From a virus (lineage: Duplodnaviria > Caudoviricetes), in the IMG/VR virus record IMGVR_UViG_3300031994_000047, positions 30,304-94,303 of that record: DNA of 64,000 nt; one strand, written 5' to 3'. Position numbers and translations under genes: made by a program. Below are positions 23,675 through 63,866 of this stretch, one piece after another. Each line of letters opens with the position of its first letter. Positions within the stretch are counted from its first letter, which is position 1. Under the pieces are notes generated by a model, which saw only the letters and a list, made by a program, of their open reading frames with translations, was not told where the DNA came from and did not search any database.

Positions 23675-26580
23675 TTATCCTCCTGTAAAGAATACTAATT
23701 GTCTATTTGAAGATTGTTGGCGTTTATACCTTTTTAGATTTTCTTCTTCGAGTTCTTTTATGCGCCAAAGCCCATATTCAAAAGCAGAAAATTTATCTTT
23801 AGGAAAACGAGAATTTATTTTCTCTAAGACAATATCCAAACCGCTTCTTTTAAGTCGAAGATTCGCCATTTCTTCAAAAAGACGAGTAGTCATTTCATGC
23901 GGCATTAATCGTTGAGTTCGTTGCTCGAAACTCATTTTTTGACCTATTTTTGTAGCGAGTAATCTCGCGCGCGCCTCTTGTTCTGTAATAAGAAATCTCA
24001 CCATGCCGCTATTTACTCTTGTGTAAGCATTACTATGGATTTTTGAGTTAAGTGGTCCATTTGCTTTTAAAGAGTATAAGATTTGAGGCGCTTCTTTTGG
24101 CTAAACTTTTTGGTAATCTTTACTATTAAAGAAACCAAGTGGAGCAAGTTCCTATCCTTTTTCATTGAATTGGGTTTGAATCATTTCATCTGCAAGACCT
24201 ACCAGTTACCTTCCGCGCGAGTCGTTAAGTCGCGCGCGTTCATATGAACTGCTATATATTTCTATATAGTTGAGACTATATCTTTATCTTTTATAAGATA
24301 TCCCCTATTTCGACTCACTTGAGCCTACGGTATAAAACCTAGTCGTTGAACATTATTTAAGATTGGAAGTAACTTCGCGCCACATTCTACCATTTTTAAT
24401 CTTACCGATTATATCTGGATGTACACCATATTCATTAGATAAATCTATATTCCGTTCACCATTATTTCCACGGATATAAATTTCTTTTACCTAATTTGGT
24501 GTTAGCTTTGCAGCGCCATTCACTTTTGCTCGTAATCCATTTTCCATGGCGTGATGAATATTTTCTTCACAAGTTACCCATTCAAGGTTATATAAACAAT
24601 TATTTGTTTTGTCTCCATCAATATGATTAACTTGAAGTTGATCCATGTTTGGGACTGGACAAAAATTTTCCATTATCAGACGATGCACTGAATAACGATG
24701 AACCTTCTTAGGCGGTAAATCAGTTGAACATAATGCAACCTTCATATATCCATCCTTATCTTTGGTTTGAGAAAGAAATTTATTGCTTCTTTCACTCCAA
24801 ATTCTGCCATCATCTGTTACATAATAATTGAATTTTAATGGATACTTACAAATAGTAATTAGTTTCTTTTCCATATATATACACCTCCAATAAAAGTGTT
24901 TTTATCTTAAATCTTTGCTGCTGATTGTCCATAAGGAGTTTCCAGCAATTAAAGGGATTTTACTTGAGCATTTAGTCTACCCAAGCCGTTGCAATCCATC
25001 ACGACTTCTCGCGGATTAAATCTCTCAATCAATGTTTTCAAATCTGCTGCTTGGCGCGCGAAAGTTTTAGTTTCTGCTTGGCGTCCAATAACATATAAAT
25101 TAACGAGCGTAGCATAGTATTTTCCATTTCGCACTATAACTTTAAAGATACAAACAACAGATTGGTCGTGTAATCTACCTACCAATACTTTCTATATGAC
25201 GCGTTAAGTCATATACGTTCTCTTATGAACTGCTATATGTTTCCATATAGATAAGACTATATCTTTATCTCATAGAGATATTTTCCATTTCGATCTACTT
25301 AGATCTACTTCCTCTCGGAATAGTCGTTGAGCCAGTTTATACTGGCGCGGATTGGCTATTTTTTGTAGTACTTAGGTTTACACCATATACCATCTTGATA
25401 TTTGTTTCTACTTTCGTAACGTCATAATCTGAGGAAGATTATTTTAGTATATCAAGCTTTAAGCGTTCCCCGCATTAAAGAAAATTTACGCACACCGATT
25501 ACTCGGTGTGGGGACATAAATTTTATCCACCGAAAATAAGTAAAAATAATCGCTATTCTATAAACTTTTTTGCTGCCATTCTGGATTAACAAGTTTTCGA
25601 TATTTTCCAATTTTATTAAAATCAAACCAAGATTCTTTACTTCCCCCATCCCAAATTCCTAAATACTCTGCCGCAAAAGTCTTTTCATCATAAGAAGGAG
25701 AAAGCTTTAAGTTCTATACATACTTTTTATCAATAAGTCCGTGCAAAACTGGAATACGATAATCTAGCCCCATACAGAAACTAGTTTTAGGACTTATAAT
25801 TGATTGTTCAAGTACATCTATAAGCGCCGCATATGCGTAAGAAGATTTCTATCCCGCAGATGTAGCATATATAACTTGTGTATTAATAGACTCGTTTTGG
25901 TTTATAAGTCCATTTTCCATTCTTCTAGACACGTTCATCTAAGGAAGAATGATTTCTGCTATTGCGTCACCGTCCTAATCGCGCGCTTCATCTATGAGCG
26001 TTGCGTGCGTTCTAATTCCTCTGTCGGAATCAAGCGCACCGACCACTGATAATTTACTTCCATTTTTGAAGTATAACTCAGCATAATCTTTTGAAAAGTT
26101 CGCGCGCGGCTCTCCACCATAAACTTCTAACTCATCTTTTAATAGAGGCCAAATGCGCCATATCTCTTGAACTTTTTGTTTTGTTATCTTTGAAGCCTAT
26201 GACTTGTTCGGCGCAACGATAGAGCCAACATGATGTGGCAAGAACATACACTAAAGATACTTCGCAAGTATTGCAAGAAATGTTTTTGATGTAGCACGCG
26301 CCGCAGTAATGTACACATTCGTATATCTCATGCAGGCGCGCAAGAATAATCTCTAATAAGGAAAAAGCTTAAAATTTGATTTTACTGGAGTAATGTGATC
26401 CAAATATATATCAGGATACACAGTATATAGACTCCACATATTCGTTAAGAAATCTTCGTGCTATTCGAGCCAAGTGGGAGTAAGTATAACTCCTTTTTCT
26501 ACCTCAACACCGTCGCGCAACACACGGTCGCGCGCATTAAAAGTCATTATAGGCTCGCGCAGTTTAATAGGTTCTGACAT
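23675..26580 (-). CDS. terL: Terminase large subunit, 3 exons (26580-25525, 25182-24979, 24202-23675), 595 aa (TAG=Gln)
   Basis: LFPY-Q-R Q-motif, AARATSKT Walker A, TLIDE Walker B, YATSAG coupling motif; nuclease motifs SVD|VGR, DCNGLG|VGLAD and KDKFSA. Exon lengths 1056/204/528 nt are all multiples of 3. Confidence 0.9.
24203..24978 (-). mobile_element. Group I intron 2 in terL (776 nt) with HNH homing endonuclease
   Basis: P1 CUUGGGU/GCUCAAG with U.G at the splice site; AAUUGCUGGAAA (P), GUUCAACGACUA (R), AAGAUAUAGUCU (S); GAAA-loop P9; terminal G. Confidence 0.9.
24353..24874 (-). CDS. Intron-encoded HNH homing endonuclease, 173 aa (one TAG=Gln)
   Basis: VHRLI...QVNHIDGDKTNNCLYNLEW; continues KLTPN-Q-VKEIY into an HTH-like tail ending at TAA 24353. 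Confidence 0.85.
25183..25524 (-). mobile_element. Group I intron 1 in terL (342 nt, no ORF)
   Basis: P1 UCGGUG-GAU / GUC..CACCGA; CUCAACGACUA (R), AAGAUAUAGUCU (S); CUAUAUG-GAAA-CAUAUAG P9; terminal G; removal restores SVD-VGR. Confidence 0.88.
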
Positions 26581-29710: not shown

Positions 29711-30004
29711 ATGGACGAAAAAGTTACCTATAGGGAACTCATGGAAAAGGTTCACGCTATGCCACGCGCTGGCAAAAAGCCTCACGGCTTTTATCTTGAC
29801 CTGGCGATTGATGAGGCACTTGAACTGTACAAGCAAGAGCATGGCTATAGAGTCACCTATTATGATGACAGTGTAACCGATGACCTCACCATGTTCGCAG
29901 GAACGCTTGAAGAATGCGAACACTACGCGCAGGAACACGCAACGGATGACCCACTAACCATCTGGGATAGCGATTGCAACGTGGTGAAGGAGGTGATAGC
30001 ATGA
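29711..30004 (+). CDS. Hypothetical early protein, 97 aa
   Basis: AAGGAG RBS; first gene of the early module. Confidence 0.8.
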   Translation: MDEKVTYRELMEKVHAMPRAGKKPHGFYLDLAIDEALELYKQEHGYRVTYYDDSVTDDLTMFAGTLEECEHYAQEHATDDPLTIWDSDCNVVKEVIA

Positions 30005-30405
30005 CCCGCTTCAAATTTGAAATGCTGGACTGCTATCCTCACAACGCGGGCGCGCGGATAGAATGCTCTATCCGCTTCAGGCTGACGGGCGACGCGGGAC
30101 GGCTTGACAATGTGCGGGCTGACCGCGGGAGCGACGTGCTGACCTATCAGGTCAAGAGCGCCCGCGCAACAGTCGCCCACGGCACTGACCTGAGAGCCTA
30201 CCTGGCAAGCGATGCGAGTACTGAATATATCTATGGAACGCGAGACGGACAAGCTTACGTGATGAACCGCGAGACCTATATAAGCTTTTGCGAGAGGTTC
30301 GGAGCTATCACGAGAGACAGTGAAAAGAACGGCGGTGAGCAAAAGATACGACTCGGGCACGAAACGAAGGCTCTGCTGAGGTGGCTCGAGGAGCGGGTGG
30401 ATTGA
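30001..30405 (+). CDS. Hypothetical early protein, paralogue A, 134 aa
   Basis: AGGAGG RBS before ATG 30001; paralogue of 31278..31673. Confidence 0.8.
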   Translation: MTRFKFEMLDCYPHNAGARIECSIRFRLTGDAGRLDNVRADRGSDVLTYQVKSARATVAHGTDLRAYLASDASTEYIYGTRDGQAYVMNRETYISFCERFGAITRDSEKNGGEQKIRLGHETKALLRWLEERVD

Positions 30406-31277: not shown

Positions 31278-31673
31278 ATGACCAAATTCAACTTCACTCT
31301 TCTCAACAACTACAAGAACAATGGACAGAATGTCGAGCAGTCAATCAGGTTCACTCTCACAGGCAAAATCGAAAAAGCCGACAACATCGCCCACAACAAA
31401 GGCACTGATTGCCTCAACTACCAAATCAAGAGCGCTCGCGCTACAGTATGCAAGGGACGGAACCTTAAAACTTATCTTGATGAAGACGCAAGCAAGGCTT
31501 ACATATACGGCACGCTTGATGGAATGGCTTACATAATGAGTCGCCAGGAATATGAAAACTTTATAGCGAATTTTGGATCTCTCACAAGAGAAAGCGAAAA
31601 AAATGGCGGCGGCGAAAAAATTCGACTCGGACATGAAACGAAAAAAATGCGGGAATGGTTGGAGAGACTCTGA
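31278..31673 (+). CDS. Hypothetical early protein, paralogue B, 131 aa
   Basis: Shares SIRFxLTG, YQxKSARATV, YIYGT and TRxSEKNGGxxKIRLGHETK with 30001..30405. Confidence 0.85.
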   Translation: MTKFNFTLLNNYKNNGQNVEQSIRFTLTGKIEKADNIAHNKGTDCLNYQIKSARATVCKGRNLKTYLDEDASKAYIYGTLDGMAYIMSRQEYENFIANFGSLTRESEKNGGGEKIRLGHETKKMREWLERL

Positions 31674-35704: not shown

Positions 35705-35912
35705 AAATGAGTCGGCGCGGATTCGCGCCGATCTTTTGCCCCGGGATGGTTAGTCACAACTAACTCGCGCGAATATAATTAGACCTTAAAGGTCTAATAA
35801 ATTCTGAAAATTAAATTATGAATAAATTATGAATTTTTGAAATAAGTCTTGACAATCCCGAAAGTTTATGATATAATATACTTGTAAAAAAAAAGAGAGA
35901 GGGAATAAAAAA

Positions 35913-36185
35913 ATGAAATACGAATTTCAAAAAGAATTTTTTGTTGTGTATGATTTAGATACTAAAAATGGAAAATTATTTCATCTTTGGACAAACCTTA
36001 TTCACTTTTTAACAGATGAAGTTATGAAGGGCAGTTGCCGCATTATCTATGATGGAGACTGCTGGCGTATGCCAAAAAGTTATGCAGAATGTTTTGACAC
36101 TCTTTGGAATGTCGAAAGTCTTGATGACTTGAACGAAATTCTTGAGGACTTGTATCGAGTTCAATTAGTTCATTTCGAGGACTGA
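35913..36185 (+). CDS. Hypothetical protein, 90 aa
   Basis: Promoter, RBS. Confidence 0.75.
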   Translation: MKYEFQKEFFVVYDLDTKNGKLFHLWTNLIHFLTDEVMKGSCRIIYDGDCWRMPKSYAECFDTLWNVESLDDLNEILEDLYRVQLVHFED

Positions 36186-36212
36186 GTTGAGGCTTCGGTC
36201 TCAACCATATAT

Positions 36213-36306
36213 GGGGTGGTCGATTTGAGTATATGGACAAGTCTTAATCCGTAAAAGTCCCATTGGGTCAGATTAAACGCGGGTTCGAATCCCGTCCACT
36301 CCACCA
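36213..36306 (+). ncRNA. tRNA-like RNA (94 nt) with an Ala acceptor identity and no canonical anticodon arm
   Basis: GGGGTGG/CCACTCC-A-CCA (G3.U70); T-arm GCGGG-TTCGAAT-CCCGT; 6-bp GATTTG/CAAGTC arm; TTAATC/GATTAA stem with a 21-nt loop. Confidence 0.75.
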
Positions 36307-36476
36307 TAGGGCGCGTCTTGCGCCTTTTCTTTGTTAGACCTTAAAGGTCTAACTCCCGGGCGCAATTTATGAACAAATTGTAAACTCGAAAATTTTTTTT
36401 GATTTCCTCTTGACAAATCCGCGCGCGTGGTGTATAATATACTCGTAAAGAACAAAAGACGAAAGGAACAAAAAAA

Positions 36477-38545: not shown

Positions 38546-38736
38546 GTGCCTTTTCCTCATTAGACCTTATAGGTCTAACTTCCCGGGCGCCGGACTTTAC
38601 CACACTAAAGTGATACCACACTAAAGCGATAAAGTGCGCGCAAAATTTTTTTTATTTTTTTTGAAAAACCCCTTGACAAATCCATTTTTATGGTGTATAA
38701 TATACTCGTAAGATAAAGAAAGGATGTGGTGCTTAT

Positions 38737-39114
38737 ATGGCAACCAACGAAAACAAACTGAAGAGCGCTCTCCGCGCGAACTGCCTCAAAATCTGTCTTG
38801 AGGCACTCATCGCCGCAGGTGAGGATGTCCGAATCGTCGGCTCAGGGTCTATCGCTTATCCCTGTGTCGATACCGAAGGGAATGAAAGATGGTGTGAAGT
38901 CACCGCAAAAATCCCGACGGGCTCTCGCGATGGTGAACCCTATGATGGGTACGCTCTCGAAGCCGACTACAAGTTGAAGCTTGAGAACGATGCGGCAAAA
39001 GCCGCCGCCAATGCCGCCAAGAAAGAGGCAAAGATTGCCAAGGACAAGGCAGCGCGTGAGGCGAAGGCGAAGGCAAAAGCCGAACGCGAAGCGAAGAAGA
39101 AGGAGGCGGAGTAA
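38737..39114 (+). CDS. Hypothetical protein with an Ala/Lys-rich helical tail, 125 aa
   Basis: Track ORF, promoter, terminator. Confidence 0.8.
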   Translation: MATNENKLKSALRANCLKICLEALIAAGEDVRIVGSGSIAYPCVDTEGNERWCEVTAKIPTGSRDGEPYDGYALEADYKLKLENDAAKAAANAAKKEAKIAKDKAAREAKAKAKAEREAKKKEAE

Positions 39115-39314
39115 TCCGCCCCTTTTCCTTTTCCTGGAAGTTAGTCATGACTAACTGCCCGGGACGAATTAGACCTTATAGGTCTAACAACCGGGCGGGC
39201 GCAATTGTGAACAAATTGTAAACTTGAAAAATTTTCAAAAACCCCTTGACAATCTCCTCCCCTTGTGCTATAATATACACAGAACGAAAGAGAACAAGAA
39301 AGGAACTCAACCGA

Positions 39315-49287: not shown

Positions 49288-50520
49288 TTAATGTTTCAAT
49301 AGATATTCGCGACTGACATTCTTAAAGGATCTTTGTCCATCTTGGCTTCTATAAACCCATCCTTCGCGCGGACCAGAACCAACAATACAAGGACCATCTG
49401 CATCAAGCTTTAAAGTCTCCATATCATCAGGAAGTATGTACTGAGTATCAACGATAGGAACCCAAGAAATCCCAGCGAGTTCACAAATCTTCGATGCCTC
49501 AATGCTGCTAATGCGCCCGACGTCAGATCTAATAAAGTTATAACCAAAGAAGCACAGTTCTTTGAACTTATGTGGGTTGCCTTGAATAGAAGGACCGCAA
49601 ATTTCACCTTGCAAGCACACATAGTCCAAATCATGATTTAGCAGATATCCCTTTAAGAAGTCAAAGATATGATACTTATCTGCCATCATCCAATACACAT
49701 TTCCTTCAATCTCAGTATGATAGTTCTTCTGAGAAGGAGTCAACTGCCGCACATTACGAGAACAAACATACTGCTCAAACTTGCGCCGACCCTTGCGCGC
49801 GAGAATATAGGTTGAAGAAGTTCCATCGAGCTTTTGAGTCTTAACCCAAGGCTCTTTATCTTTTAAGAGCTCTGGGCAATTTTCTGCCCTCTCTTCATCA
49901 GTCGGTTTGACGAATGGAAACTGAGTCGGAAATTTCTTATTGTCTTTCTTCTTACTTCCAAAGAAGATAAACAAAAGCTTCCTACCCAAGTTATACTTCA
50001 TAAGCCAACGAAATACTGGCTTCTTAAAGAGCTTAGCGTGACGCGCTGCCATAGACTTATACTTATCTATACCCGAACCCTTGCGCGCGTTATCTTCAGC
50101 AGAAGCATAAGTTACACCCAATACATCAGTCAGAAATCTTGCTTCACTATTCAATACATCTGCGCCCGAAGCAAGGGCTAGCTGAAGAGTTGCCATCCAT
50201 ACTGGACATCTTCCTTCATTATCAACCCAAGCACTCAGCGGTATCAAAAGCCCCTGTGATACAACTCCTCTGATCTTCTGTGACTTAATCTTAAAGTTCT
50301 TTGAGCGCAAAAACTCCATAGCAGAAAAAGGAGGCTTATCAGGAATAAGAGAGTCAATTTCAAAATAGACCGCATAATCTCCAGCCTTAAACTCTCCCTT
50401 TCCTACGACACAATTCCAACCACCAACTCGCGCGCACTCAAGTCGATCGGCGTTCATAGGAAGAATTTCATCAACTTTCACTAGGTAAGCTAATTCTCTC
50501 TTTGAATCCTTATTTAACAT
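49288..50520 (-). CDS. RNA ligase, DRB0094/Rnl5-like, 410 aa
   Basis: N-terminal OB-like domain (ADRLE..YFEIDS..RGVVSQGL); KLDGTS motif I; QGE, EGWV, SFKNVS. Confidence 0.85.
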   Translation of the reverse strand: MLNKDSKRELAYLVKVDEILPMNADRLECARVGGWNCVVGKGEFKAGDYAVYFEIDSLIPDKPPFSAMEFLRSKNFKIKSQKIRGVVSQGLLIPLSAWVDNEGRCPVWMATLQLALASGADVLNSEARFLTDVLGVTYASAEDNARKGSGIDKYKSMAARHAKLFKKPVFRWLMKYNLGRKLLFIFFGSKKKDNKKFPTQFPFVKPTDEERAENCPELLKDKEPWVKTQKLDGTSSTYILARKGRRKFEQYVCSRNVRQLTPSQKNYHTEIEGNVYWMMADKYHIFDFLKGYLLNHDLDYVCLQGEICGPSIQGNPHKFKELCFFGYNFIRSDVGRISSIEASKICELAGISWVPIVDTQYILPDDMETLKLDADGPCIVGSGPREGWVYRSQDGQRSFKNVSREYLLKH

Positions 50521-58220: not shown

Positions 58221-58295
58221 TGGGGGCGAAGGAGGGAATCGAACCCCCGACCTCCGGATAATGAAACCGGCAAGCTACCACTGCTCCACTTCGCG
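58221..58295 (-). tRNA. tRNA-Met(CAT), initiator-like
   Basis: Cloverleaf, CAT anticodon, C1 mismatch, encoded CCA. Confidence 0.85.
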
Positions 58296-58388
58296 ATATA
58301 GAATTTGAAGCTCTCTTTCATTTTCTATAAATATTATACCAAAAATTTCAGAAAATTTCAAATTTTGGAAGCTCTCAAATTTTCAAAA

Positions 58389-58826
58389 TTACACTAAATC
58401 TTTTTCCGACACATCGTCGCCACATTCGCAACCAAAATATAGTGTAGTTTCTGCTGAACTTATTCCTTGAAGAAATTCGATATAAGATTTTGCATACTCT
58501 ACTTCTTTTCTTTCTTCAACAAGTTCTTCTATAAAATTTTGTGCTTCTTCGATAGCCGAAAGACGATCTTCAATAGAAGTTTCTTTCATATCAACAATGA
58601 GCTTTATACGGAGTTGCGCGCGATTTATCGAGTCATTATAGTTTTCGATCTCGATTTGAAGTTTGTCAGAAGCAGTGGAAAGCTTTTGATCCGAAAGTCG
58701 CATAATATGTTGCCAGGGAGCGTTTGACAAAGCTTCAGAAATTTTAGAACTGCCGCAGAAGCATCCAAGCTGGACAAATTCTGCGCCGCCTTGCTTGCGC
58801 GCAAAGATATGAGTATATTCAGACAT
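58389..58826 (-). CDS. Hypothetical coiled-coil protein, 145 aa
   Basis: Promoter, AAGGAG RBS. Confidence 0.7.
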   Translation of the reverse strand: MSEYTHIFARKQGGAEFVQLGCFCGSSKISEALSNAPWQHIMRLSDQKLSTASDKLQIEIENYNDSINRAQLRIKLIVDMKETSIEDRLSAIEEAQNFIEELVEERKEVEYAKSYIEFLQGISSAETTLYFGCECGDDVSEKDLV

Positions 58827-58892
58827 TTGAAAACTCCTTTCTTTTCTTTCTGTATATATTATAGCAGAAATTTTAAAAGATTTCAAATTTTG

Positions 58893-58971
58893 TGGTCTCG
58901 GAGGCGCCGCTCGAAGACGCAGTAATGTCCTGATCCCAAATCAGGCGGGGTCCCTCTTCCCCTACTCCGAG
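58893..58971 (-). tRNA. tRNA-Pro(TGG)
   Basis: CCTGA-TTTGGGA-TCAGG anticodon arm, CCA. Confidence 0.8.
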
Positions 58972-59077
58972 ATATATATTTATGAATAATAGGCTGTTCC
59001 TTATTCCATTTAACATTTATGTCTCTTCAAATTCATGTCGACGCTTACTTTTGAAGCCTTGCACCTATTATTCAATT

Positions 59078-59152
59078 TGGCGGCGGGCGACGGTGCCGCC
59101 CCGTCATCTTCGGTTTTAGAGACCGATGCATTTGCTGATATGCTAGCCCGCA
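59078..59152 (-). tRNA. Amber suppressor tRNA (anticodon CTA), probably Gln
   Basis: TCGGT-CTCTAAA-ACCGA anticodon arm; acceptor TGCGGGC/GCCCGCC-G-CCA (open first pair, G73); own promoter at about 59165-59208. Confidence 0.9.
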
Positions 59153-59207
59153 ATCTCTCTTAACTTTCTATATATATTATACAAAAATTTTTATAGATTT
59201 TCAAATT

Positions 59208-59447
59208 TTAATAATCTATAAAACGAGAAGGCTCTCTAATTCTTGTTTTAAGTTCATTCCAACTTAACTCAACAATTGCATCGTCTTCTTTGACCCCATC
59301 TTCTGCGGCAAGTCGAATAATGTCTTCGCTTAAAAATACCATTCCATCCCAGCCGTCAACTACATATTCGTGGAACGCAATTCCATAACCATAACGCTCC
59401 CAATCTCTTTGATAGAATCGAACTTGCACTGGATGATCGTAATACAT
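59208..59447 (-). CDS. Hypothetical protein, 79 aa
   Basis: GAGGAG RBS. Confidence 0.7.
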   Translation of the reverse strand: MYYDHPVQVRFYQRDWERYGYGIAFHEYVVDGWDGMVFLSEDIIRLAAEDGVKEDDAIVELSWNELKTRIREPSRFIDY

Positions 59448-59469
59448 CTTAAACTCCTCGTTTTATTTT

Positions 59470-59545
59470 TGGAGCCCCCGTCGGGGTATGATCCCGAATC
59501 AGTAGATTACAAATCTACCACACTCTCCATTTGTGCTACAGGGGC
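59470..59545 (-). tRNA. tRNA-Thr(TGT)
   Basis: GTAGA-TTTGTAA-TCTAC, CCA. Confidence 0.85.
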
Positions 59546-59553
59546 AAATATCC

Positions 59554-59786
59554 GAGACACTTTTTTTAAAGCAGGAATACCTGACAGTCGGCGAACTAAA
59601 GCCAAAAATTGCTGGAAGTGTCTCTACAACATTAAAATAACCAAGGCGCCTTTTGGTAGCAGAAATTAAAAGTTTCTTCCAATTAAAAATTGCTGTAGGC
59701 GCCTTTTCATTAATCATAAATCAAGACGGCTAAATTAAATTCAATATCGGCGAATTTTTTCTAAAGAAGATTGCTGAAACCGTCTT
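59554..59786 (-). ncRNA. Three tandem stem-CAGCAAU elements (59723-59786, 59643-59705, 59554-59624)
   Basis: AAGACGG/CCGTCTT, AAGGCGCCT/AGGCGCCTT and GAGACACTT/AAGTGTCTC stems, each 5' strand followed by CAGCAAT. Confidence 0.7.
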
Positions 59787-59793
59787 TTAAAAC

Positions 59794-61350
59794 TTAAAGT
59801 TCAGTTACGACCTTATCGTATCTTTCGTCCATTAAAGCCGTAAGCATAACATTTATAGGATCAATAGTTTCCTTCTTTTGGATCTTTCCATTTTCCATAG
59901 TGTACTCAACAGTAGTTCCATCAATTACAGACTTAAACAAAGAAGGAGAATATCCGCTAACCATAGCGCAATTTTCACCATTAACAGTTTCTTGGAACAT
60001 ACCCTTATCGCTAGCTCTTACATTCCAATAAACAATCGCAGGCATAGTATATCCATAAGACTCATACTTAGCGCGCATTTGGCGCATAAAAGTCAAACCA
60101 GAATTACGAGTCTTAGTCTTTGCATAACGATTAGAAAAATCGTAGTAATACTCAGTGGTTGCCGCATCGAACTGCATATCAGAAATAATATACAACTTCT
60201 TAGGCATATCCTTATCCTTAAGGTGCGCGCTAACTGCGGTTTGGAGAATCAAATCAAATACTGCTTCGAGGTTAGTATTTGAATCCCAATTAGCTCGCTC
60301 CATATTCTGAACCTTAGAGTAAATATCTGCGCCAATAATGGACTGAAGCTGAGGTCTCGCAGAGAAGGTAATGAAATGCCCCTTAAAAGGTCCACGGCAC
60401 TTATCTGCGCAATACATACCAAGAGAAAGAGCAACTTCGATAGGAGTTCCACTCATAGATCCAGAAGTATCTACAACGCAGATTCCAGTCTCTTCTCTTC
60501 CCTCAAGATAATTAGGCAAAGACTTCCACATCTTATCAAGCATTTCTCGTGACAAAGTATCCCCGCTAGGAAGTCGAAGCGCCTGATGTACAATATCTAC
60601 AGGGAAGAGCGCAGTTGCATTTATCTTTCCAGTAGTCAAATAGCGAGAATATCTATTATAATCGTGACGTGCGAAAGCCTTACGATAGTTAAGATGTGCC
60701 TTGCCAGGGACGGTATCATACTTAATATCTTGCCATCTGTTCTTGCTCATCTTCTGCTCTACAATATTGATATGAGATCTAAGAGCAGAAAGAATCTTAC
60801 GATACTGACGAGGAGTCATCTTCAGATTAATTCTTATATCGCGCGCAATAGCACGGGTTCTAGGAGATGAAGTATTCTCAGAAGGAAGCCACTTAGCAAG
60901 AAGAGAAATAGACTTTCCATTTCTCATACCAGTCAAATCCTCATCAATCTGAGTTGCAATAAACTTATAGATAGACTGACGAGTTCTAGGTGCAAACGCA
61001 TACAAAAGATCATCACTGCGACCATATTCCAAAAAGTTAGGAAGGTTTGCGATTACATAGCGAGGATGAAATTCTGCTAGCCACTTAGAAATAACGCGGA
61101 AAACTCTACGCATACCCTGACCACCGCGGCAGTCTCTAATATAAAACCAGAGACGAAGCGCGAGGTCCTTATTTTCTTCAAAAGCCTTCTCAAAAGTAAG
61201 AGTAATCTGAGAATCGGGCGCATCCTTCATCGCGCCGAGACTTCCAAATGCGTCTAATACCGCATTATTGGTTGACTTCAGCGCGCCCGCGCCATTTTCA
61301 GTCTCAGTAAAGTTAAATTCGTTCTTAAGATTCTTCAAAAATTCATTCAT
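59794..61350 (-). CDS. Ro60/TROVE-like (DUF2828-type) protein with a C-terminal vWA domain, 518 aa, no TAG
   Basis: TENGA, RDCRGGQGMR, AKWLPSE, YRKILS.LR, VVDTSGSM (MIDAS), ISDMQFD, YWNV, SGYSP. Confidence 0.8.
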   Translation of the reverse strand: MNEFLKNLKNEFNFTETENGAGALKSTNNAVLDAFGSLGAMKDAPDSQITLTFEKAFEENKDLALRLWFYIRDCRGGQGMRRVFRVISKWLAEFHPRYVIANLPNFLEYGRSDDLLYAFAPRTRQSIYKFIATQIDEDLTGMRNGKSISLLAKWLPSENTSSPRTRAIARDIRINLKMTPRQYRKILSALRSHINIVEQKMSKNRWQDIKYDTVPGKAHLNYRKAFARHDYNRYSRYLTTGKINATALFPVDIVHQALRLPSGDTLSREMLDKMWKSLPNYLEGREETGICVVDTSGSMSGTPIEVALSLGMYCADKCRGPFKGHFITFSARPQLQSIIGADIYSKVQNMERANWDSNTNLEAVFDLILQTAVSAHLKDKDMPKKLYIISDMQFDAATTEYYYDFSNRYAKTKTRNSGLTFMRQMRAKYESYGYTMPAIVYWNVRASDKGMFQETVNGENCAMVSGYSPSLFKSVIDGTTVEYTMENGKIQKKETIDPINVMLTALMDERYDKVVTEL

Positions 61351-61361
61351 TTTTAATACCT

Positions 61362-61419
61362 AGACTCTCAAAAATAATATCCAAATTATTATTATAAAAA
61401 ATAATTGCTGTAAGAGTCT
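61362..61419 (-). promoter_or_regulatory. stem-CAGCAAU element in the 5' UTR of the TROVE-like gene
   Basis: AGACTCT-TA-CAGCAAT...AGAGTCT ends 11 nt before the ATG; promoter at about 61445-61482. Confidence 0.7.
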
Positions 61420-61485
61420 TTTATCCTTTCCTTTTTTTCTTTCTGTAAATATTATAACATAAATTTTAAAAGATTTCAAATTTTC

Positions 61486-61596
61486 AAGACACTATTTAGT
61501 GCTCTACCAACTGAGCTAAAACACAACTTTGTGTCTATGGGATTCGAACCCATAACCCCTGCATTCTGAGTGCAAAGTAATTGCTGTAAGTGTCTT
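61486..61596 (-). ncRNA. stem-CAGCAAU element containing a circularly permuted tRNA module (Y-RNA/YrlA-like)
   Basis: AAGACACT..AGTGTCTT closing stem; inside are an anticodon-like hairpin, T-arm ATGGG-TTCGAAT-CCCAT, capped acceptor AGACACA-AAGT-TGTGTTT and D-arm GCTC-AGTTGGTA-GAGC. Confidence 0.75.
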
Positions 61597-61672
61597 TGGT
61601 AGCGGCAGGGAGGGTTGAACTCACCTTTTTAGCGTTGAAGGCGCTATGTACTAACCGTTATACGATGCCGCC
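61597..61672 (-). tRNA. tRNA-Glu(TTC)
   Basis: TAGCG-CCTTCAA-CGCTA, CCA. Confidence 0.85.
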
Positions 61673-62227
61673 AGATTGTTTATTTGATCGTCTTTTATTA
61701 TTACAAGATATACATCTTTTAGCATTTTTTGTAATTACTTTTCCACAATCAATACAATAGTTTAGCGTATGCTCTTTATGCTATTTATTTTTACCATTTG
61801 TTGTATCCAGCTAATAATTACAATTAGGACAAACCCAACGAAGATTTTCTAATCTATCATCAGTGTTTTTCCCATTAATATGGTCTAAAATTAAAGTTAG
61901 CTCTTTATTGTTCCAAAATGGCAACTAGCCACAAATTGAACATTTATATTCCGAATAATTTCCTTTATAATACCATTCTCTTAAAGTTTTCTGAGCAGCG
62001 GTTGAGTTTTCTATAAATATATTTTCAACAGAGCGTTTAGTTGGATTTGTGTTTGAAGTAAAATGAGAAATAGATAAATTTAAAGATTGAATCCGTAATT
62101 TCAAATTAGCTAAAGTTTTACCTGAAAAAGAGTTGTAACCCAACTAAAGCAAACAATTCTTATAGCTTGTACTTTCCTATACAATTCTAGCAAATTCTTC
62201 ATCAGAATACTAACTTAAAATAGACAT
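61658..62227 (-). CDS. HNH endonuclease, 189 aa (TAG=Gln), stop codon inside tRNA-Glu
   Basis: CSICG, LDHINGKNTDDRLENLRWVCPNCNY-Q-LDT, second Zn finger CIDC..CISC. Confidence 0.85.
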
Positions 62228-62239
62228 TAATATCTCCTT

Positions 62240-62266
62240 GTCACTCACCATTTAGACGATAGCGCC
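62240..62266 (-). pseudogene. 5' remnant of a tRNA-Glu-like gene
   Basis: GGCGCTATCGTCTAAATGGTGAGTGAC resembles the 5' third of tRNA-Glu (GGCGGCATCGTATAACGGTTAGTAC). Confidence 0.55.
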
Positions 62267-62273
62267 ATATAAG

Positions 62274-62349
62274 TGGTGGGAGTGGAGGGAATCGAACCCT
62301 CGCCCTACGGTTTAAAAGACCGTTACTCTACCAACTGAGTTACACTCCC
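62274..62349 (-). tRNA. tRNA-Lys(TTT)
   Basis: ACGGT-CTTTTAA-ACCGT, CCA. Confidence 0.92.
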
Positions 62350-62606
62350 ATAAGCCAATAAATAACATATAAGAGCCAGTATCCCGCGCGCAAGCATAAA
62401 TTTTCATCATCATTTAAATCTACATCTTTTGTATGAGATCTAAACAATCCAATCTCGTATAAGAAATTATGCGCGCACCATTCTGCGACATAACTCTCAA
62501 TAGAACGATTCTTTCCTAAAAGCCCTTTATCATAGAAATCTATGACTCGCGCGCGGATGTCAGCAATAGCAGTAGTTTTGTAACTGTCTTTTATGTGTAA
62601 GTTCAT
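62340..62606 (-). CDS. Hypothetical protein, 88 aa (stop inside tRNA-Lys)
   Basis: RS..SY..EWCAHNFLY..G..RSHTKDVDL. Confidence 0.65.
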   Translation of the reverse strand: MNLHIKDSYKTTAIADIRARVIDFYDKGLLGKNRSIESYVAEWCAHNFLYEIGLFRSHTKDVDLNDDENLCLRAGYWLLYVIYWLMGV

Positions 62607-62715
62607 TTTCTTTTAAGTTGTGTAAATGCAAGTATAAGTTGTACAAGACAAATTACACAAATCGCAAAAGAAAAATTTCCCATACACATTTCATTCCAAA
62701 TCGTTTCCCAAAACA

Positions 62716-63042
62716 TTATGACTTATACTTTTCGTTAAGAGTTTCATCTAGGACGCCGAGCGTAGCTTCAAGAGTTTCATATGCCTCATCGAGACTATTT
62801 TCTCTCTCATAGATTTTTCTATCAAGCCCATCATACTGCTCTTCAAGTTCAGAAAGAATCCTTGCGTGATGTTTAATGCGCGCCCTTGCAACTTTCACAT
62901 CGCAACGAGCTTGCGCGAGACGCTTTCCGTATTCAATATCGAAAGTGTCAAGAGGACTACATTTTGCGCGACCTTTGTATTCTTTGCCCGCGAAATGCGA
63001 AACACAAACGACTTCTTTCTTCCCAAAGTAAAACTTATACAT
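62716..63042 (-). CDS. Hypothetical protein, 108 aa
   Basis: G.AKCSPLDTFDIEYGKRLA.AR, a motif common in phage proteins; promoter, RBS. Confidence 0.75.
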   Translation of the reverse strand: MYKFYFGKKEVVCVSHFAGKEYKGRAKCSPLDTFDIEYGKRLAQARCDVKVARARIKHHARILSELEEQYDGLDRKIYERENSLDEAYETLEATLGVLDETLNEKYKS

Positions 63043-63111
63043 AACTTATCTCCTTTTTTATTTTCTATAAATATTATAGCATAAATTTTTTGAAATGTCA
63101 AAATTTCTTAG

Positions 63112-63185
63112 TGGAGTCCGTAGCGAGTGCTGCCCTCGCGCCCGAAGCTTGGAAGGCTTCTATACTACTGTTATACGACACGGAC
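63112..63185 (-). tRNA. tRNA-Gly(TCC)
   Basis: GAAGC-CTTCCAA-GCTTC, CCA. Confidence 0.85.
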
Positions 63186-63188
63186 AAG

Positions 63189-63265
63189 TGGTGGCGCCTG
63201 TGGGACTCGAACCCACAAAACCACGCTTTTGAGGCGCGTATGTCTACCAGTTGCATCACGACGCC
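63189..63265 (-). tRNA. tRNA-Leu(CAA), short variable region
   Basis: CGCGC-CTCAAAA-GCGTG, Leu-type D arm, CCA. Confidence 0.8.
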
Positions 63266-63268
63266 ATA

Positions 63269-63352
63269 TGGTGTGCAAAGTGGGATTTGAACCCACAAGC
63301 CAAAGGCAAAAGTTTCTAAGACTTTCATGTCTACCGGTTCCATCATTTGCAC
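63269..63352 (-). tRNA. tRNA-Leu(TAG)
   Basis: AAAGT-CTTAGAA-ACTTT, variable arm, CCA. Confidence 0.88.
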
Positions 63353-63355
63353 ATA

Positions 63356-63440
63356 TGGTAGGGGAAGTGGGACTCGAACCCACACGCTTTGCGGCATCGC
63401 GTCTTAAGCGCGATGTGGCTACCAATTACACCATTCCCCC
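63356..63440 (-). tRNA. tRNA-Leu(TAA)
   Basis: TCGCG-CTTAAGA-CGCGA, variable arm, CCA. Confidence 0.9.
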
Positions 63441-63446
63441 ATAGAT

Positions 63447-63533
63447 TGGTGCGCCGGGTTGGAGTTGCACCAACGATGTTTCTCGTGTTATGGTTTTACA
63501 GACCACTGCCCTCGCTGCTAGGCATACCGACGC
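63447..63533 (-). tRNA. tRNA-Tyr(GTA)
   Basis: GTGGT-CTGTAAA-ACCAT, long variable arm, CCA. Confidence 0.85.
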
Positions 63534-63539
63534 ATATAG

Positions 63540-63616
63540 TGGTGCACCATCTTAGAATTGAACTAAGGACCTTCGACTTATGAGATCGTTGCTCTAACCA
63601 ACTGAGCTAATGGTAC
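63540..63616 (-). tRNA. tRNA-Met/Ile2(CAT)
   Basis: CGAT-CTCATAA-GTCG, CCA. Confidence 0.85.
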
Positions 63617-63619
63617 ATT

Positions 63620-63694
63620 TGGGGTAAGAGATCGGTTACGATCCGACGTCAGAGGAGCCACAATCCTCCGTTCTACCATTGAACTACTCTCACC
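63620..63694 (-). tRNA. tRNA-His(GTG)
   Basis: GAGGA-TTGTGGC-TCCTC, G-1/C73, CCA. Confidence 0.85.
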
Positions 63695-63705
63695 ATTTAG
63701 ATTTT

Positions 63706-63781
63706 TGGCGGTTCTACCGAGGTTTGAACTCGGATTTTCAATGTGACAGACTGATGTTTTAGCCGCTTAAACTATAGAACC
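63706..63781 (-). tRNA. tRNA-Asp(GTC)
   Basis: TCAGT-CTGTCAC-ATTGA, G73, CCA. Confidence 0.88.
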
Positions 63782-63789
63782 ATATATTT

Positions 63790-63866
63790 TGGAGAGAAGG
63801 AACAGATTCGAACTGTTGAATAACGGTTTTGCAAACCGCCGCGATACCAGACTACGCCACCTTCCC
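63790..63866 (-). tRNA. tRNA-Cys(GCA)
   Basis: GCGGT-TTGCAAA-ACCGT, U73, CCA. Confidence 0.88.

Follow-up and report, generated by a model that had tools for sequence, protein, structure and literature searches.

What is the short RNA with an alanine-type acceptor end that appears to be encoded among the small early genes of a gut phage, and what might the phage use it for? The stretch of DNA that was analysed, referred to here as the window, makes up the final 64 kb of an IMG/VR virus record of 94.3 kb from sheep gut, estimated with CheckV to be 76% complete. Long open reading frames (ORFs) appear on its minus strand only when TAG is taken as a sense codon, and the phage, a gut phage of Firmicutes type, translates TAG as glutamine. 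The earlier note on this DNA had described a 94-nt RNA with G3.U70, A73 and CCA, and the RNA is confirmed at 36213-36306 on the plus strand; the span given there, 36186-36330, adds the flanking hairpins. Judged on its sequence, the locus appears to be a phage gene for a small, non-decoding tRNA mimic of alanine identity, a description to which folding, a metagenome copy and a chance search all contribute.

The predicted transcript starts with GGGGUGG and ends with CCACUCC-A-CCA. The 5' strand of its acceptor stem (36213-36219, with the G of G3.U70 at 36215) pairs with the 3' strand CCACUCC, which carries U70 at 36300 and is followed by the discriminator A73 and an encoded CCA (36296-36306 together). 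This gives a 7-bp stem of the tRNA or tmRNA type (G1-C72, G2-C71, G3.U70, G4-C69, U5-A68, G6-C67 and G7-C66), in which all seven pairs have a pair probability above 0.96. The T arm, GCGGG-UUCGAAU-CCCGU (36279-36295), has the usual 5-bp stem and a 7-nt loop of the UUCGA type, and aligns to the Rfam tmRNA model RF00023 with the asterisk that marks top posterior probability. A closed helix with no decoding loop replaces the anticodon arm (36244-36276): the stem UUAAUC/GAUUAA, with its strands at 36244-36249 and 36271-36276, encloses a 21-nt loop that includes a small CCC/GGG hairpin. The body beyond the acceptor/T-arm minihelix amounts to 57 nt. A 7-nt anticodon loop is absent from both predicted folds, as are a CUA and any plausible tag frame, and the only match to the complement of the 21-nt loop within the 64-kb window is the loop itself. 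The closed arm in the anticodon-arm position implies that the RNA cannot read a codon.

The 6-bp stem with its 21-nt loop, as described in the earlier note, does exist, but it belongs to only one of two nearly iso-energetic folds. In the cloverleaf fold, at a predicted -25.4 kcal/mol, a candidate D arm at 36222-36243, made of the 6-bp stem GAUUUG/CAAGUC and the loop AGUAUAUGGA, is followed by the UUAAUC/GAUUAA stem and its loop, a 2-nt linker and the T arm. The rod fold, at -26.8 kcal/mol, instead pairs 36222-36228 with 36268-36274 (GAUUUGA/UCAGAUU) and extends this helix by AUGGAC/GUC(C)CAU. By textbook tRNA numbering the cloverleaf would hold U8, A14, G15 with C48, G18G19 and A21, which we take to form a normal tRNA elbow. 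The RNA may thus adopt the cloverleaf of a tRNA, complete with D arm and full tRNA core but with a dead anticodon arm. The two folds place G23G24 (36235-36236) differently, in a loop that would engage the T loop in the cloverleaf and in a paired stem in the rod. Because no diverged homologue was found, covariation backs neither the cloverleaf nor the rod.

The combination of a T arm, a 7-bp acceptor stem and a terminal NCCA is rare enough to be informative. A search for it in the window and in 200 random 64-kb sequences matched to it in dinucleotide composition recovered only the real tRNAs and the 94-nt RNA from the window, and two matches from all 200 random sequences, or about 0.01 such motifs expected by chance per 64-kb window. 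This result argues that the motif is not a product of chance.

Assigning the RNA to a known class is less straightforward. ARAGORN calls neither a tRNA nor a tmRNA at 36213-36306, relaxed settings giving only a poor 'Phe(aaa)' fold, and no Rfam family matches there at its gathering threshold. In a whole-genome search with RF00023, the gathering cut-off of which is 47 bits, the RNA reaches 35.1 bits as a global match, hardly more than the 34.6 bits that an ordinary tRNA-Lys encoded by this phage obtains in that search; on a shortened region, the 3' part matches at 22-24 bits. The near equality with tRNA-Lys implies that nothing beyond the G-rich acceptor stem, the T arm and ACCA contributes to the score, and the 3' end that had been likened to that of tmRNA is instead generically tRNA-like. 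The features specific to tmRNA are absent. In place of the unpaired D loop expected between the acceptor stem and helix 2a, which would be about 10-16 nt long and contain GG..UUCGAC, there is only UCGAU (UC, then stem), and 94 nt leave no room for a resume codon, a tag reading frame and pseudoknots; the claim that there is no tag reading frame therefore holds, also in that ARAGORN finds no tmRNA. Nor is the RNA a canonical tRNA, for which a cloverleaf with a 7-nt anticodon loop and either at least 29 bits on RF00005 or an ARAGORN call were looked for and not found. Two more specific candidates were rejected. The ten codons from UUA to UAA that follow AAGUC could be read as a hidden tag frame, but they have no alanine resume codon and no ARAGORN call and are attributed to chance; a suppressor tRNA is likewise discounted, as the central arm has no CUA and the real tRNA(CUA) lies at 59081-59152 on the minus strand. 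To judge from sequence features, the RNA is not a demonstrable fragment of tmRNA. It seems best compared with the TLD-only tmRNAs of phages, yet is placed outside the tmRNA family, as a variant and not a member, because the D-loop signature and the score both fall short.

The closest precedent is found in Mycobacterium phage DS6A, listed as 'TLD only' by Hudson, Lau and Williams (PMC4131195) and located at JN698994: 28478-28560 (tmRNA Website tmID 11587). Like the 94-nt RNA, the DS6A molecule is phage-encoded and 80-95 nt long, with a G3.U70 acceptor, a canonical T arm, a closed helix for an anticodon arm and no tag frame. Unlike it, the DS6A molecule has the D loop of tmRNA (..GGUGGUCGAC), and its RF00023 score is 43.2 bits, whereas the 94-nt RNA has only UCGAU in this place, can form a 6-bp D stem and encodes its CCA. 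There is no significant inner sequence similarity between the two, and the host and phage lineage differ. Citing Mao et al. 2009, PMC4131195 reports strong inhibition of tmRNA in E. coli by a DS6A-like molecule, whether or not this can be charged, and suggests titration of SmpB as a possible cause; the account of DS6A in the 2025 tmRNA database (PMC11915505) repeats this inhibition, again from Mao et al. 2009, and adds CDS-less forms from plastids. Such tag-less alanine-type tRNA mimics occupy only a few sentences of the literature, all on DS6A. Bacterial tmRNA TLDs (RF00023) and the CDS-less tmRNAs of organelles also share G3.U70, A73, the T arm and the lack of an anticodon with the 94-nt RNA, which in comparison with bacterial tmRNA lacks the unpaired D loop, helix 2, the pseudoknots and the tag, and falls below the family cut-off.

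The genomic setting suggests a gene that is expressed directly after infection. A row of small genes in the standard code occupies the plus strand at 29.6-40 kb. Perfect TTGACA-17-TATAAT promoters number 15 in it, and the majority have the TG of an extended -10 box; about 20 weak matches are expected overall from the scan used. This region looks like an early module for a sigma-70-type host polymerase, in keeping with the placement originally proposed. The cassette bearing the RNA has its own perfect promoter with TG at 35849-35877 (plus strand), followed by a 90-aa ORF (35913-36185, plus strand) without Pfam or PHROG matches. No other good plus-strand promoter was seen between this one and the RNA, hence none that would serve the RNA separately, and the ORF and the RNA are probably co-transcribed. 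The position between two hairpins is as the earlier note had it. The upstream one (36186-36205) has an 8-bp stem, a TTCG loop and no T run, and is separated by CATATAT from G1; the downstream one, at 36308-36326, is an intrinsic terminator made of a G+C hairpin and then TTTTCTTTG. A second hairpin at 36333-36353 marks the cassette boundary, and the next perfect TTGACA-17-TATAAT promoter lies at 36410-36438, all on the plus strand. In metatranscriptomes from two sheep-gut runs, the matching contigs are short and cover the promoter and a portion of the 90-aa ORF, and none covers the RNA, which counts neither for nor against expression. The 13 tRNAs that ARAGORN finds in the window all lie on the minus strand at 58221-63866, so that the RNA is indeed 22 kb away from the tRNA cluster and on the opposite strand.

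Sequences from other sources bear on both the conservation of the RNA and its mobility. When JGI/GenBank metagenome contigs were scanned with a pattern reduced to the acceptor stem and the T-loop core, nine loci emerged. In one metagenome contig from a related phage (L096), all 94 of 94 nt are identical to the RNA. The BLAST match between the window and this contig runs from ATAT, about 4 nt before G1 (36209-36212 in the window), to about 10 nt beyond CCA, which implies that the conserved unit coincides with the predicted RNA. The surroundings differ: the copy lies 3' of a different ORF of 74 aa, for which BLASTP shows no resemblance to the 90-aa ORF, and other hairpins flank it, including one at the position of the upstream hairpin. 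The first cassette of the contig, which neighbours the copy and is homologous to 38659-39155 of the window, is only 79% identical to it over 502 nt. The upstream ORF was considered as a conserved partner protein and rejected, the two ORFs being unrelated and without family matches.

Contigs from two independent gut runs, of sheep and cattle (X3 and X4), also cover the RNA, and among the differences listed none falls inside it, while in X4 the upstream 90-aa ORF differs by about ten substitutions and an insertion of 9 nt. The RNA looks selected, and the sequence comparisons are good, if non-conclusive, evidence of purifying selection; identity across two contexts could stem from recent recombination instead of long purifying selection. 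The same runs reveal strains without it. In an X4 contig of a more diverged strain, 36204 is followed by six other letters and then by 36334, an exact loss of the RNA and its terminator (36205-36333), and a contig from X3 skips the whole RNA cassette. In these public runs the joints of the strain variants, 35797 to 36362 and 36204 to 36334, fall at hairpin boundaries, and variants of the early region fit cassette shuffling. From these sequence comparisons, the RNA behaves as a discrete, accessory module of about 100 nt that is exchanged between early cassettes and present only in some strains. An identical copy in another cassette and a clean presence/absence variant thus add signs of both selection and modular mobility.

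Searches further afield returned no relative. No similar DNA was found in GenBank phages, and none in IMG/VR, whether sought through the neighbouring protein, a structured pattern or words from the inner sequence; the structured pattern gave 48 IMG/VR matches, of which two had a paired acceptor stem, both unrelated to the RNA. No relative was found in bacterial genomes, and the 3' 26 nt are matched in none of 185,579 species genomes. These data bear on the idea that the locus is a decaying tRNA, a tmRNA remnant or an attP segment copied from the 3' end of ssrA or of a tRNA gene in the host, with no function of its own, which might be read into the absence of ARAGORN and Rfam calls and of the RNA from most relatives; it is largely refuted and very improbable, given that every stem is intact, that the two contexts are 100% identical with sharp boundaries at the RNA ends, that the 5' acceptor strand is present though an attP core has no need of it, that no tyrosine or serine recombinase (integrase) was found in the 76% complete record, and that the 3' end has no bacterial match. 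Nor do the relatives have a full tmRNA or a normal tRNA-Ala at this place, which, with an unexpressed and decaying copy here, would have spoken against the original proposal.

Anticodon-less RNAs of alanine type do recur among related phages. Relatives were retrieved through the exonuclease gene that lies 3 kb downstream of the RNA, giving 31 viral contigs with 42-76% protein identity, and in all 31 the 94-nt RNA is absent within 10 kb of that gene. A scan of 19 full records with RF00023 identified no full-length tmRNA and three anticodon-less alanine-type RNAs, at loci that differ from that of the 94-nt RNA. The closest relative of the phage carries one of 96 nt (G001; L081:1501-1596 on the minus strand, which is L050:10863-10958 on the plus strand), scoring 36.2 bits and lying 200 nt downstream of the exonuclease gene. 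Its predicted fold is a type-II-like cloverleaf. As in the 94-nt RNA, the 6-bp D stem directly adjoins the helix that follows; there are also a long variable arm and an interrupted anticodon-like arm, in which the loop is UGCAAAU and position 33 is a G. None of the tools identifies it as a tRNA. The other two have 80 nt, 39.4 bits and the D loop UAACGGUUUCGAG (G011; L102:1501-1580, plus strand), and 83 nt, 51.2 bits, above the cut-off, and the D loop ..GGGUGUUCGAC (G012; L104:1501-1583, minus strand), the latter within a tRNA cluster. A near copy of the 80-nt RNA (L114:3925-4004, minus strand) has a compensatory change of A7-U66 to G7-C66 and is the only one of these last three to encode CCA.

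These three mini-tmRNAs, L102, L104 and L114, are canonical TLD-only molecules with a tmRNA-type D loop and an 18-nt loop, UUAA..CC.AAGUG..CU. They resemble the 94-nt RNA in coming from the same clade (exonuclease 63-66% identical), in their alanine identity, in lacking an anticodon and a tag, and in being sporadic; they differ from it in their tmRNA D-loop signature, their scores of 39-51 bits and their loci, one being in a tRNA cluster. A homology between the central arms, suggested by eye and in a MAFFT alignment by a shared UUAA..UCCG..AAGU, was dropped after a shuffle test, as local alignment of the 94-nt RNA with the L102 and L104 loops is no better than with shuffled sequences (p 0.2-0.4). 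G3.U70 and A73 are present in every anticodon-less mini RNA found in the clade, namely the 94-nt RNA, L081, L102, L104 and L114. Some alanine-accepting, non-decoding RNA is carried by four of the 20 TAG-recoded records of the clade, in at least three unrelated-looking versions, and because no such RNA is found in the rest of the clade, the 94-nt RNA is dispensable. Some relatives have a normal tRNA-Ala(UGC) together with a tRNA(CUA).

Three RNAs from unrelated contigs may be mentioned alongside these. One viral contig (L005) has the tmRNA D-loop signature and 53.7 bits on RF00023. The RNA at L094:1728-1821 (plus strand) has 94 nt, the same GGGGUGG/CCACUCC acceptor stem and the same upstream arrangement of hairpin, TATAT and GGGG as the 94-nt RNA, with an enlarged anticodon loop, a 4-base anticodon (cgaa) in ARAGORN and 41.7 bits on the Rfam tRNA model. 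That at L040:1036-1123 (plus strand) has an alanine-type acceptor stem, the 8-nt loop CUUUCUAU, which contains CUA, and a long variable arm. The inner similarity of the 94-nt RNA to L094 and L040, as to L099, is not significant.

A role can be proposed from the acceptor end. Minihelices with G3.U70 are sufficient substrates for AlaRS, and the first four acceptor pairs and A73 of the RNA are as in tRNA-Ala and tmRNA. Alanine acceptor-T-arm minihelices, as studied by Francklyn and Schimmel, are reportedly AlaRS substrates in the form of laboratory constructs; the 94-nt RNA has every element sufficient for alanylation, and differs in being a natural gene and in its additional body. The completeness of this identity set implies that AlaRS should charge the RNA and that EF-Tu should bind it. 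The reading preferred here is that it competes with host tmRNA, damping trans-translation and tagging early in infection, by analogy with DS6A; a probability of roughly 40% is attached to this. Host RNA polymerase would transcribe the RNA early from 35849-35877 together with the 90-aa ORF, RNase P would free it at the junction between AUAU and G1, where the U at -1 suits cleavage, and its 3' end would be trimmed to the encoded CCA ahead of the terminator. Host AlaRS would then charge it through G1-C72, G2-C71, G3.U70, G4-C69 and A73, as AlaRS biochemistry suggests, and EF-Tu, from what is established for tmRNA, would bind the charged acceptor and T arm. In this state it could vie with host tmRNA and Ala-tRNA for SmpB, EF-Tu, AlaRS and the empty A site, such that the rescue of stalled ribosomes and proteolytic tagging would be damped or redirected.

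The notion of a decoy for SmpB, EF-Tu or AlaRS had been raised in the earlier note, and gains support from the inhibition of tmRNA in E. coli by the TLD-only RNA of DS6A, in so far as the cited accounts describe it. Also counted in its favour are the two relatives in the clade that have canonical TLD-only tmRNAs (39.4 and 51.2 bits, against 43.2 for DS6A). Against it count the absence of the D-loop signature that SmpB contacts, the absence of an SmpB gene from the phage record, and the lack of inner similarity to TLD-only RNAs. Should the RNA prove to be charged and to act on either SmpB or EF-Tu, it would offer a compact, natural means of inhibiting trans-translation and of studying this process; if not, another use of Ala-tRNA mimicry would be indicated.

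An alternative that is judged somewhat unlikely leaves trans-translation aside, and takes the RNA to be a decoy for a defence enzyme that attacks the acceptor ends or bodies of tRNAs, or a client of the phage's own RNA repair by its RNA ligase and Ro60-like protein. The phage has at least 13 tRNAs and a suppressor, encodes an RNA ligase (49288-50520) and a Ro-like protein (59794-61350), and the cloverleaf fold, on a textbook reading, keeps the tRNA core (U8, A14, G15, G18G19, A21 and C48), all of which would suit such a conflict. A decoy for an anticodon nuclease, however, would require an anticodon loop, and the strict alanine identity of all the mini RNAs in the clade would go unexplained. 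The version involving Ro also meets objections. YrlA-type Y RNAs (RF02553) are likewise tRNA-shaped non-coding RNAs, and this phage also has a Ro-like protein, but the ends of a Y RNA form a Ro-binding stem and the Ro gene is adjacent, whereas those of the 94-nt RNA lie in an acceptor stem, the CAGCAAU handle motif is absent and the Ro-like gene is 22 kb away.

A broader form of the interference reading would connect it with the genetic code of these phages. TAG-reassigning gut phages would recurrently acquire diverse alanine-chargeable, anticodon-less mimics (cloverleaf, type-II-like and TLD-only) as interchangeable early modules that disable or hijack host ribosome quality control, meaning tmRNA-SmpB and perhaps Ala-tailing RQC, and so spare ribosomes at in-frame TAG from rescue and tagging; the 94-nt RNA would then represent a new structural class with a full tRNA core. 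Such a link would be important if true, and is so far only an idea, considered unlikely. No evidence was obtained for the relevance to ribosomes pausing at TAG that had been suggested at the outset, only four of 20 TAG-recoded members of the clade carrying any such RNA, and no link between stop-codon recoding in phages and tmRNA was found in the papers searched.

In both contexts the RNA follows a small ORF, within its 3' UTR and always between hairpins. This could be taken to mean that it acts in cis, as a processing or stability module: RNase P and 3' trimming enzymes would use it to set and protect the terminus of the early mRNA upstream, and the alanine features would be incidental. Such tRNA-like structures are, by textbook accounts, substrates of RNase P. 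Such a module would, however, be present in only one of about 15-21 early cassettes, downstream of unrelated ORFs in the two contexts, and the identity between these extends over all 94 nt, loops included. The alanine set, which recurs in the clade, and the encoded CCA also exceed what processing needs, and this explanation is regarded as quite unlikely.

A shade less credible again is a tag-less rescue RNA, which, charged with alanine and acting with host SmpB, would free stalled ribosomes by adding only an alanine, replacing host tmRNA in such a way that phage proteins escape being marked for degradation. The structural features that favour interference with rescue favour this equally, and CDS-less tmRNAs thought to be functional are known from the mitochondria of jakobids and from some plastids (PMC11915505; PMC4131195). 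The UAA triplets in the central arm could be invoked as well, but are expected by chance in an AU-rich loop, and ARAGORN recognises neither a resume-codon context nor a tag frame. Without a reading frame there would be no termination after transfer, and the D loop required for docking of SmpB is absent.

Several other features of the window concern RNA. The tRNA(CUA) at 59081-59152 (minus strand), an amber suppressor with the anticodon loop CUCUAAA, scores 38.1 bits on the Rfam tRNA model and is missed by ARAGORN; it has an odd T loop, GGCGGCA instead of UUCGAAU, its D region contains CAGCAAAU, a sequence similar to the CAGCAAU handle, and it is the likely decoder of the TAG-to-Gln recoding. 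The Ro-like 'RNA-binding protein' (DUF2828/DUF7788) adjoins the tRNA cluster and, together with the RNA ligase (PHA02142 OB-fold and RNA_ligase), both on the minus strand, provides the phage with a sizeable toolkit for RNA repair and RNPs. A group I intron (RF00028, 70 bits) lies at 25233-25534 on the minus strand, inside the late TAG-recoded region. Within the early module, the plus-strand ORFs at 29974-30405 and 31278-31673, of 143 and 131 aa, are paralogous and share motifs such as YQ.KSARATV and GHETK.
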